Below the pieces are notes generated by a model, which searched no databases, was not told the origin of the DNA, and was given only the letters and a program-made list of their open reading frames with translations. Shown here piece by piece: positions 34,233 to 36,520 of a stretch of DNA of 64,000 bases. The position numbers and the translations under genes were made by a program. This DNA comes from Eledone cirrhosa. Lineage: Eukaryota. The DNA lies in the NCBI GenBank assembly GCA_964016885.1, contig OZ024740.1:193316001-193380000 (forward strand), written 5' to 3'. Each line of letters begins with the position of its first letter. Position 1 is the stretch's first letter.

Positions 34233-35882
34233 AATGACGTAGGTTTGGTACTTATTTTATTGCCCACAGAATGATGACAGAAAAATCCCATTCTGCTATA
34301 AAGTTGATAATATTGGATAATATATTATATGGTGTGCCACAGTTCGAGATCGGTGTGGAAGTCGGACCTTCGTAAAGACCTGAAAACCCGTCTCTTCGTT
34401 GCTGTAGTTTAGCCTGTGCTGCTGTACTGGTCTGAAACGTAGACACTGACAAAGAAACACGAGCATGCTGAGGATGGTTCTGAACATTAATCAGTATACA
34501 CTGAGGATGAGGAACTCAGAGCTGTACGGGAGACGCATGACATGGCAGCGATGATGAGGGACAGAGAGCGCTGGAGAGATCTCGTCCATAGATCTCGGAA
34601 ATTTTACCCGCCCTAGATAGATAGATATATGAAATGACAGAACAAAAAACTGCATGATCACGGAAGGATTGATAATGTTATGTCAGAACAATTGCTGCTC
34701 ACCTGTGCCTAAAAACCAACAACACTATCACAAATTCTGTCAATGCGACAAGTTGTTTATTCATGGAAATTGATATCAATTTATATCTTAGCAAATTAAG
34801 CCAGCAAGAATTCACTCTGTTATGTATCATGAGAGATTACACGCTGTAAGAATTTCAACTCATAGGTCATCATCGTGGGAATAGAGCCAACTGCTTATCA
34901 CGTAAATAAATATAAACAAGTGAATTATATTTACATCAATCATGTGTACTGGATTACTTCAGTCGGCAATTTTGAGGACTAAATTATGCATTTCTTCGCT
35001 TAGTACAATATATTTTTTTAAAATCTATAATTAGTTAGAAAGCTTAACCTTTCATTTTACAAAATATTAATCAAGGAATGGTTTTATATTCGATCATCAA
35101 AAGAGTTTTGCAAAACTTTTCACATAGCTGCCCTTTTTTTCAAACCTCCAAAGAAATTTTATTATTTATAACATCTCAGAAAATAGATATTTCATGAGAT
35201 AAGATTCTATAAACATAAATAAATTCCAACGTTTAATCTATTTTGCCTTTCCGAAAATTCCATCCATAGAAAGCAAAACACGCACACACACATAACCCCC
35301 CACCCCCACCCCATACACACATATATATATATAAATATATATATATGCACTTAAAAAAATCACAAAACAGAAACAAGTTATCTCACGAAGATTTAATAAC
35401 TTCCAACCCAACAACAGGGAATTTACTGAAGATAGGATTTGCAGAAAATAATTTATTGTTTATTAATGTTCTTTGTTTTATCTTTGCGTATTTTCTTTAT
35501 CTTTGCGTATTTTCAAGTATTTAGGAAAGGAGATATATTTAATATATGTAACAAACATATATATATACATCTTTATATATATATATACTAAAAACAAATA
35601 ACGAAACGAAATTAAATTTCGTTTCGTTTGTAACTCACTTTTGTATGACTGACGCTTAAACAATTAAGTTAAAAATGTACATCCACATATGTATACTGAA
35701 ATACTAGTATGCATATGAATACACACACGAGTACATATGTAGATGTACCGAGTTTTTGACTGGTCACTTTACTGTGAGTGTCCAGCTATTCTGTATGTAA
35801 ACACACAGACAAACCGGTTTTTAGAGTCATACTGGTTTTTGAGGAAACACCTTTCCTCTATTCTCCAGAAAGCCAGACAAGG

Positions 35883-35927
35883 AACATTGGACTAGTTTCG
35901 ATGTTGTTACATCTCATCAGCAATATT
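35883..35927 (-). ncRNA. Canonical minimal type I hammerhead, family A
   Basis: aatattg CTGATGA gatgt aaca acatc GAAA ctag TC caatgtt. Confidence 0.9.
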
Positions 35928-36222
35928 TACCTATCTTCCGGCCTTTCTAGAGAATCGTTTTGTATGACTGACGCTATACATATGTGGATATACATATGTG
36001 GATGTACATTTTTAACTTAATTGTTTAAGCGTCAGTCATACAAAAGTGAGTTACAAACGAAACGAAATTTAATTTCGTTTCGTTATTTGTTTTTATCGTC
36101 TCCGTTGAACCGGTACGTACTCACGCTCTATGCAAATTAGTCTGCCCACTACTAATTTTCATAGAAAAAGCATATAACGATATGTGCTTTTACGATTCTC
36201 TAGAAAGGCCGGAAGATAGGTA

Positions 36223-36267
36223 AATATTGCTGATGAGATGTAACAACATCGAAACTAGTCTAATATT
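36223..36267 (+). ncRNA. Canonical minimal type I hammerhead, family A
   Basis: aatattg CTGATGA gatgt aaca acatc GAAA ctag TC taatatt; GUC triplet, predicted cleavage after 36260. Confidence 0.9.
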
Positions 36268-36520
36268 CCTTGTCTGGCTTTCTGGAGAATAGAGGAAAGG
36301 TGTTTCCTCAAAAACCAGTATGACTCTAAAAACCGGTTTGTCTGTGTGTTTACATACAGAATAGCTGGACACTCACAGTAAAGTGACCAGTGAAAAACTC
36401 GGTATATCTACATATGTACACGTGTGTGTATTCATGTGCATACTAGTATTTCAGTATACATATGTGGATGTACATTTTTAACTTAATTATATATATACTG
36501 ATTCGTATATATATATATAT

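Follow-up and report, generated by a model that had tools for sequence, protein, structure and literature searches.

A 466-nt hammerhead repeat of Eledone cirrhosa as a non-LTR retrozyme: unusually direct genomic evidence for its movement

A two-armed insertion at the locus

The window is a 64,000-nt stretch of the Eledone cirrhosa genome (GCA_964016885.1, contig OZ024740.1, positions 193,316,001 to 193,380,000). At 35589..36488 it carries a forward and an inverted copy of a hammerhead repeat of 466 nt, which a sequence-only reading had described as two different circular permutations of one monomer. We found that the pair is made up of the two arms of a single insertion and not of free permutations, since the pair is bordered on both sides by a 12-nt target duplication and its arms are connected by a 30-nt templated patch. 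Neither the duplication, including its right copy, nor the patch had been noticed in that reading. The features of the locus are the following:

35578..35589, left target-site duplication, 12 nt, in a (TA)n tract; its last base is common to the arm end
35589..35958, minus strand, arm B, monomer 204-466 then 1-107; its 3' end is family end B
35867..35938, minus strand, type I hammerhead motif of arm B (Rfam Hammerhead_HH9, 35.3 bits, below the Rfam gathering score of 52; E 3.4e-6)
35959..35988, centre junction patch, a piece from monomer 40-57 in inverted orientation, then a second copy of monomer 1-14 (14 nt)
35989..36488, plus strand, arm A, monomer 1-466 then 1-34; its 3' end is family end A
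36023..36096, plus strand, tail between ends A and B, roughly 70 nt, monomer 35-108; it holds the hairpin at 36056-36084
36212..36283, plus strand, type I hammerhead motif of arm A (Rfam Hammerhead_HH9, 34.7 bits, likewise below the gathering score; E 5.2e-6), with the predicted cut at 36260/36261
36488..36499, right target-site duplication, 12 nt

The copies themselves had been described accurately. The plus copy (35989-36454) and its 34-nt repeat correspond to monomer 1-466 and 1-34 with 100% identity, and the inverted copy, read from 35958 to 35589, indeed continues past the monomer junction, covering monomer 204-466 and 1-107 in 370 nt (only 0.79 monomer in length) with 6 differences. The two stem I differences between the copies preserve pairing in the sequence, each leaving one G-U pair. 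The GUC triplet lies at 36258-36260, directly before the predicted cut, and the 14-bp hairpin is recovered in the predicted fold with a 3-nt loop. The interpretation of the ends had to be revised. Although the read-through is real, the junction 36454/35989 is merely the 5'-truncation point of the plus arm; the natural monomer junction coincides with the cut site, which is read through in both copies. The repeat at 36455-36488 is present, but it stands for the fixed 3' end A of the family. Permuted start points lose their value as evidence for a circle, as the 3' ends are fixed at two sites and it is the 5' truncations that vary, which any tandem template would give. The proposed circular or multimeric non-coding RNA template of a retrozyme gained support, in contrast to the view of the two copies as separate permutations.

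The locus is non-coding, a single 80-aa stop-to-stop frame being all that overlaps it. The repeat contains no open reading frame with a reverse transcriptase and a GIY-YIG endonuclease, as an autonomous Penelope-like element (PLE) does, and it was not found to be a fixed-ended part of a long coding PLE, the outcome that would have spoken against the sequence-only reading. Elsewhere in the window, hammerhead-like motifs of other families occur at 45405 (+) and 1015 (-), of types that lie near PLE ends elsewhere, and a broken LINE fragment at 29105-30994 (-) matches reverse transcriptase and endonuclease. Another two-armed copy of the family lies about 10 kb past the window end (L010, G000:C1:193389039-193390420).

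Family-wide rules for ends and targets

In the 3.0-Gb genome, an exact 44-nt internal motif gave 4,819 matches, and the B end joined to (TA)n was found at 2,190 places, corresponding to at least 2,190 insertion ends; the reversed control gave 0 in both cases. The A-end pattern gave 2,043 matches, double counts included. Three sets of loci were used. Set 1 comprised 34 loci ranked by similarity to the window copy, set 2 comprised 28 regions taken from the 44-nt motif matches in order along contig 1, and set 3 comprised 60 of the first 100 B-end/(TA)n places; sets 1 and 2 were not chosen by their flanks. Repeat views of one locus, a diverged third-family element in L010 and two of three duplicated copies in L043 were dropped before counting. 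The tally of locus-wide terminal alleles leaves out L021, and the sporadic tallies, both for set 1 and pooled, leave out positions 273, 417 and 448.

The arms join at their 5' ends and face outward, head to head. Their 3' ends fall at monomer about 31-39 (end A) or about 103-108 (end B), approximately 70 nt apart. Among head-to-head loci, one A end was paired with one B end in 20 of 25 cases in set 1, 16 of 19 in set 2 and 39 of 43 in set 3, that is, in 75 of the 87 pooled loci. Pairs of the AA or BB type were never observed, and the remaining 12 loci were unscorable because one end was truncated, masked or unfetched. In set 3, 17 of the 60 loci had no partner arm within 60 nt, several of them having short stubs. 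The 5' ends, for their part, are scattered across the monomer (KS p=0.89 in set 2; p=0.016, not quite uniform, in set 3). The cut site is crossed by 44 of 46 arms, and of 44 5' ends, only 2 are found at 10 nt or less from it. Given that the arms cross the cut site and that 5' ends are not piled there, the template was not a cleaved linear monomer.

The targets are AT-rich or microsatellite (TA)n sequences, as expected for an element mobilised by a PLE. Since most flanks are pure (TA)n, target duplications are readable at only a few loci, such as L029 and L015, where they measure 13 nt. With an inverted, 5'-truncated copy at the 5' end (87 loci) and two fixed 3' ends, the insertions exhibit the inverted-copy-plus-tail anatomy of PLEs.

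Two related families were also observed. A sister element at 38816-39709 of the window is two-armed and carries a hammerhead; it is collinear with the monomer at about 61% similarity and has a period of 444, a GUA triplet at 39410-39412 and 1,260 candidates genome-wide. This sister family keeps the paired-end rule in 13 of 16 loci by script and in 15 of 16 on reading. The second, a tandem family at L010, L047, L112 and L192, is about 64% alike to the monomer core.

With regard to the source of the enzyme, no autonomous PLE with the same ends or ribozyme was found in one intact family and scattered fragments of others. The intact family is represented in the window by a remnant at 40043-40844, where a frameshifted 3' part is followed by degenerate tandem units of roughly 110-120 nt. 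It has 64,047 candidates, with relatives carrying frames of 781-866 aa, and displays its own two 3' ends and (TA)n joints. Pfam and PDB scans of its protein returned no name; we take the family to be a PLE on the basis of its reverse transcriptase and GIY-YIG motifs and its layout. As a partner of the retrozyme it was rejected, as it showed no match to the monomer.

Ribozyme conservation, array homogeneity and A>G changes

None of the 14 hammerhead core positions carries a locus-wide change, compared with 135 of the 466 monomer sites. Stem II covaries through an A-T/T-A swap (62 versus 54 loci), and the cleavage triplet is GTT or GTC in 114 of 116 loci. Stem III consists of two base pairs around a palindromic hexamer, and hammerhead motifs of this kind can work as dimers. 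The invariance of the core suggests that self-cleavage of the monomer would be needed for the spread of the family. As the cDNA crosses the cut, the simplest template would be a religated circle. Folded in this form, the monomer has a predicted minimum free energy of -152 kcal/mol (z -9.1 against 40 shuffles). Tandem units that each carry a type I hammerhead, with motif and covariation intact, and a monomer predicted to be highly self-paired are what is expected of a retrozyme.

Two other candidate lines of evidence were rejected. A C>T change at the first base after the cut, present in 13 of 25 set-1 loci, resembled a junction footprint, with a second hot spot at monomer 417. Outside the query-chosen set, however, the T allele was found in 1/135 and 0/148 (set 2) and in 0/211 and 0/240 (set 3), and the footprint was absent from the sister family at 38816-39709. 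It reflects selection bias in set 1, because both hot spots are alleles of the query copy and the search skips common words. Closed contigs of 495-497 nt in runs X5 and X6 do not count as evidence for a circle either, as a collapsed tandem repeat gives the same result. Run X1 proved to be DNA, the introns of a single-copy gene being covered at about 17x; X4-X6 cover only the repeats of that gene.

At 5,405 of 5,446 common variable sites, the two arms of one locus carry the same variant; for random arm pairs, discordance at such sites is 25.8%. In 78 of 83 loci the arms differ at two common sites or fewer, which is the case for 10% of random arm pairs, and in the other five they differ at 3-5. 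Both arms of an insertion, in 78 of the 83 loci, carry one haplotype and so derive from one template. One young haplotype has 69 occurrences at 7 places. The seventh of these loci is chimeric; the other six are without any substitution, even where the arms measure 6.9+12.9 or 17.6+8.0 monomers. Fresh arrays without substitution reach 25 monomers. Older arrays (L031, L117, L121, L164 and L214) exhibit repeated higher-order variants, and one array exceeds 55 monomers; some arrays grew further by DNA-level duplication, and the higher-order variants mean that array length alone is no proof of rolling-circle copying.

Private alleles were considered as proof of a one-monomer bottleneck and discarded, as only one of three tested patterns was confined to one locus. 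Of the other two, one occurred at 7 loci and one was a homopolymer deletion recurring in scattered monomers elsewhere. The L144 haplotype is present at that locus alone, in both arms. The L126 haplotype is common to 7 loci, so that a linear, homogeneous transcript from one of them could have served as template for the rest. In the chimeric arms of L210 and L123, the intervals of switched haplotype (about 273-341 and 273-327) start at the cut site, a pattern that a jump from one cleaved RNA to another would produce; these are two cases, recognised post hoc.

One substitution pattern concerns alleles present throughout a locus but missing from its three nearest loci. These locus-wide terminal alleles occur in 53 of 120 loci and number 108; sense-strand A>G accounts for 43 of them, T>C for 12, C>T for 9 and G>A for 15. 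The ratio of A>G to T>C is 32:12 without L145, a locus with 11 A>G changes repeated in consecutive monomers. Alleles in at least two monomers of one arm show the same skew (34 A>G versus 11 T>C), which is not observed among the 723 single-copy differences (60 A>G, 82 T>C). The latter show a sense-strand excess of G>A over C>T instead (127 versus 69), possibly resulting from damage to or errors in first-strand cDNA. At least three locus-wide A>G changes are present in each of five loci, and no locus has three of any other class. Three A>G changes within 6 nt separate the young haplotype from that of L214. Genomic A>G sites fall at monomer 142-163, 188-189 and 226-238. A preceding G was found at 0 of 23 A>G sites, compared with 24 of 125 other A positions (p=0.026), which fits the preference of ADAR enzymes. 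Pairing of the A>G sites (17 of 23, against 75 of 125 other A) did not differ significantly. Selection for G-U pairs was rejected as a cause, since a corresponding excess of C>T would then be expected and was not observed (9 C>T against 15 G>A).

The A>G skew was first noticed post hoc, and the pre-set test on set 3 gave 7:2 (p=0.10), or 4:2 when both arms were required. A per-locus sign test gave 18:10 (p=0.18), indicating that a few clustered loci carry the signal. The sample covered about 120 loci out of more than 2,000, so that the edits may predate the last copying step. The locus-wide pattern would be explained by RNA editing copied repeatedly from one circular monomer.

A probable circular template and its meaning

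Mobilisation of PLE type is highly probable from the paired ends and the inverted copy, and the template was probably a circle. The case for the circle, which we infer from genomic sequence, rests on identical monomers, repeated A>G clusters and the invariant ribozyme core. We consider it likely that each insertion was written by the borrowed reverse transcriptase/endonuclease of a PLE from a non-coding RNA monomer that was itself likely circular. In such a scheme, array transcripts would self-cleave, the monomers would be ligated into circles, and some circles would be A-to-I edited. The PLE enzyme would then nick both target strands about 12 nt apart, each nick priming at one of two internal start sites. 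Both cDNAs would run round one circle for a variable length and be joined at the centre, and some arrays would later be extended by DNA-level duplication. A more specific version is, in our estimation, as easily wrong as right: the insertions may record twin-primed rolling-circle reverse transcription by a PLE dimer, with two starts 70 nt apart, one per nicked strand, and with A-to-I edits in every monomer, such that editing drives the evolution of the family.

The most serious competing explanation, which we regard as unlikely though well short of negligible, retains PLE-type insertion but takes an uncleaved linear array transcript as the template, with one-monomer insertions and DNA-level expansion spreading the haplotypes. 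In the accessible text of PMC11167929, uncleaved RNA is the dominant in vitro substrate of the anole PLE. Homogeneous long arrays exist as possible sources of such a template, DNA-level expansion is seen in older arrays, and a common haplotype would likewise result if both arms started 70 nt apart on the same linear RNA. However, editing of a linear multimer should vary among monomers, whereas single-copy differences show no A>G excess (60 versus 82) and array-wide alleles do (34 versus 11). Moreover, both arms can be long without any substitution, and if cleavage did nothing but destroy the template, the invariance of the catalytic core would be difficult to account for. A DNA element of satellite or foldback type, multiplied and kept uniform by DNA-level processes and inverted by repair or recombination, would account for the higher-order duplication in long arrays and for the segmental copies at C4:26.07-26.09 Mb. 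The A+B end rule already largely refutes it, as the outer ends differ by a fixed tail and are not equal terminal inverted repeats. The centre also lies at variable registers, copies are scattered over thousands of (TA)n sites, at a few of which target duplications can be read, and the sense-strand A>G skew is unexpected from DNA mutation alone; we consider this origin highly improbable. The same very low probability applies to the unit being the pseudo-LTR of a long coding PLE, left behind as 5'-truncated fragments. The PLE anatomy and the presence of hammerheads near the ends of other PLEs in the genome are compatible with this, but the arms consist of up to dozens of monomers without coding sequence, the PLE protein matches in fetched loci are separate neighbours, and the similarity of the one intact PLE family examined to the monomer is limited to TA-rich low complexity.

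In the features examined, the 466-nt repeat belongs among the non-LTR retrozymes. For these, circRNA templates and PLE mobilisation have already been proposed, the arguments being expression, co-occurrence and pLTR phylogeny as far as the available text of the two sources goes (PMC7229834; bioRxiv 10.64898/2026.07.22.740005). The accessible part of the 2026 preprint describes evidence for the retrozyme life cycle as limited (bioRxiv 10.64898/2026.07.22.740005). The repeat resembles the retrozymes described there in its non-coding tandem monomers with a type I hammerhead, its strong self-pairing and the presence of PLEs in the genome. Its 466 nt exceed the range of about 170-400 nt given in the accessible text of one source (PMC7229834) and fall inside the 51-972 bp given in that of the other (bioRxiv 10.64898/2026.07.22.740005). 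The evidence on the repeat is genomic. The word 'inverted' is absent from PMC7229834, and in the accessible literature we found no two-armed retrozyme insertions, strict paired ends or edit clusters; subscription papers or supplements may describe them.

The insertions share with EN+ PLEs, as portrayed in the accessible literature, an inverted 5'-truncated copy, a tail often at one end, a bias toward AT-rich or microsatellite targets (PMC8557442) and two internal reverse transcription start sites, the latter seen in vitro, where both strands were nicked and extended and a dimer was predicted (PMC11167929). How PLEs make inverted, tailed insertions is called undefined in that literature. Unlike EN+ PLEs, the repeat encodes no protein and its arms are multimers of one monomer; its tail is about 70 nt, compared with the 30-40 nt described in the texts available. 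The accessible in vitro account reports no start-site difference between strands (PMC11167929), whereas here one start is paired with the other in every scorable case. The non-autonomous Chlamys elements such as MRC1 are likewise non-coding PLE passengers with multicopy head-to-tail insertions, but, in the text accessible to us, they lack canonical hammerheads and resemble their autonomous partner at the 3' end (PMC8557442); here a hammerhead is present, and a partner was not found in the one intact PLE family and the fragments of others. Plant LTR retrozymes are also hammerhead-bearing non-autonomous retroelements with a proposed circular intermediate, yet the available description gives them a type III hammerhead, LTRs, PBS/PPT and 4-bp duplications (bioRxiv 10.64898/2026.07.22.740005), in contrast to the type I motif, the absence of an LTR-type layout and the 12-13-nt duplications observed here. 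The repeat is accordingly no LTR retrozyme, having neither a type III hammerhead in LTRs nor a 4-bp target duplication.

The kind of element is already known; what is new is the evidence on how a retrozyme moves, and we regard the 466-nt repeat as a non-LTR retrozyme for which the genomic evidence of movement is unusually direct. The rule that each insertion pairs an A end with a B end can be counted across the family, and the repeated A>G clusters may mark, from within, copying from a single circle. For in vitro study, the family offers a short, well-defined RNA together with two start sites and a target. If the preferred reading is true, retrotransposition in an animal would proceed by way of a circular RNA, and this circle would carry RNA edits into the germline.
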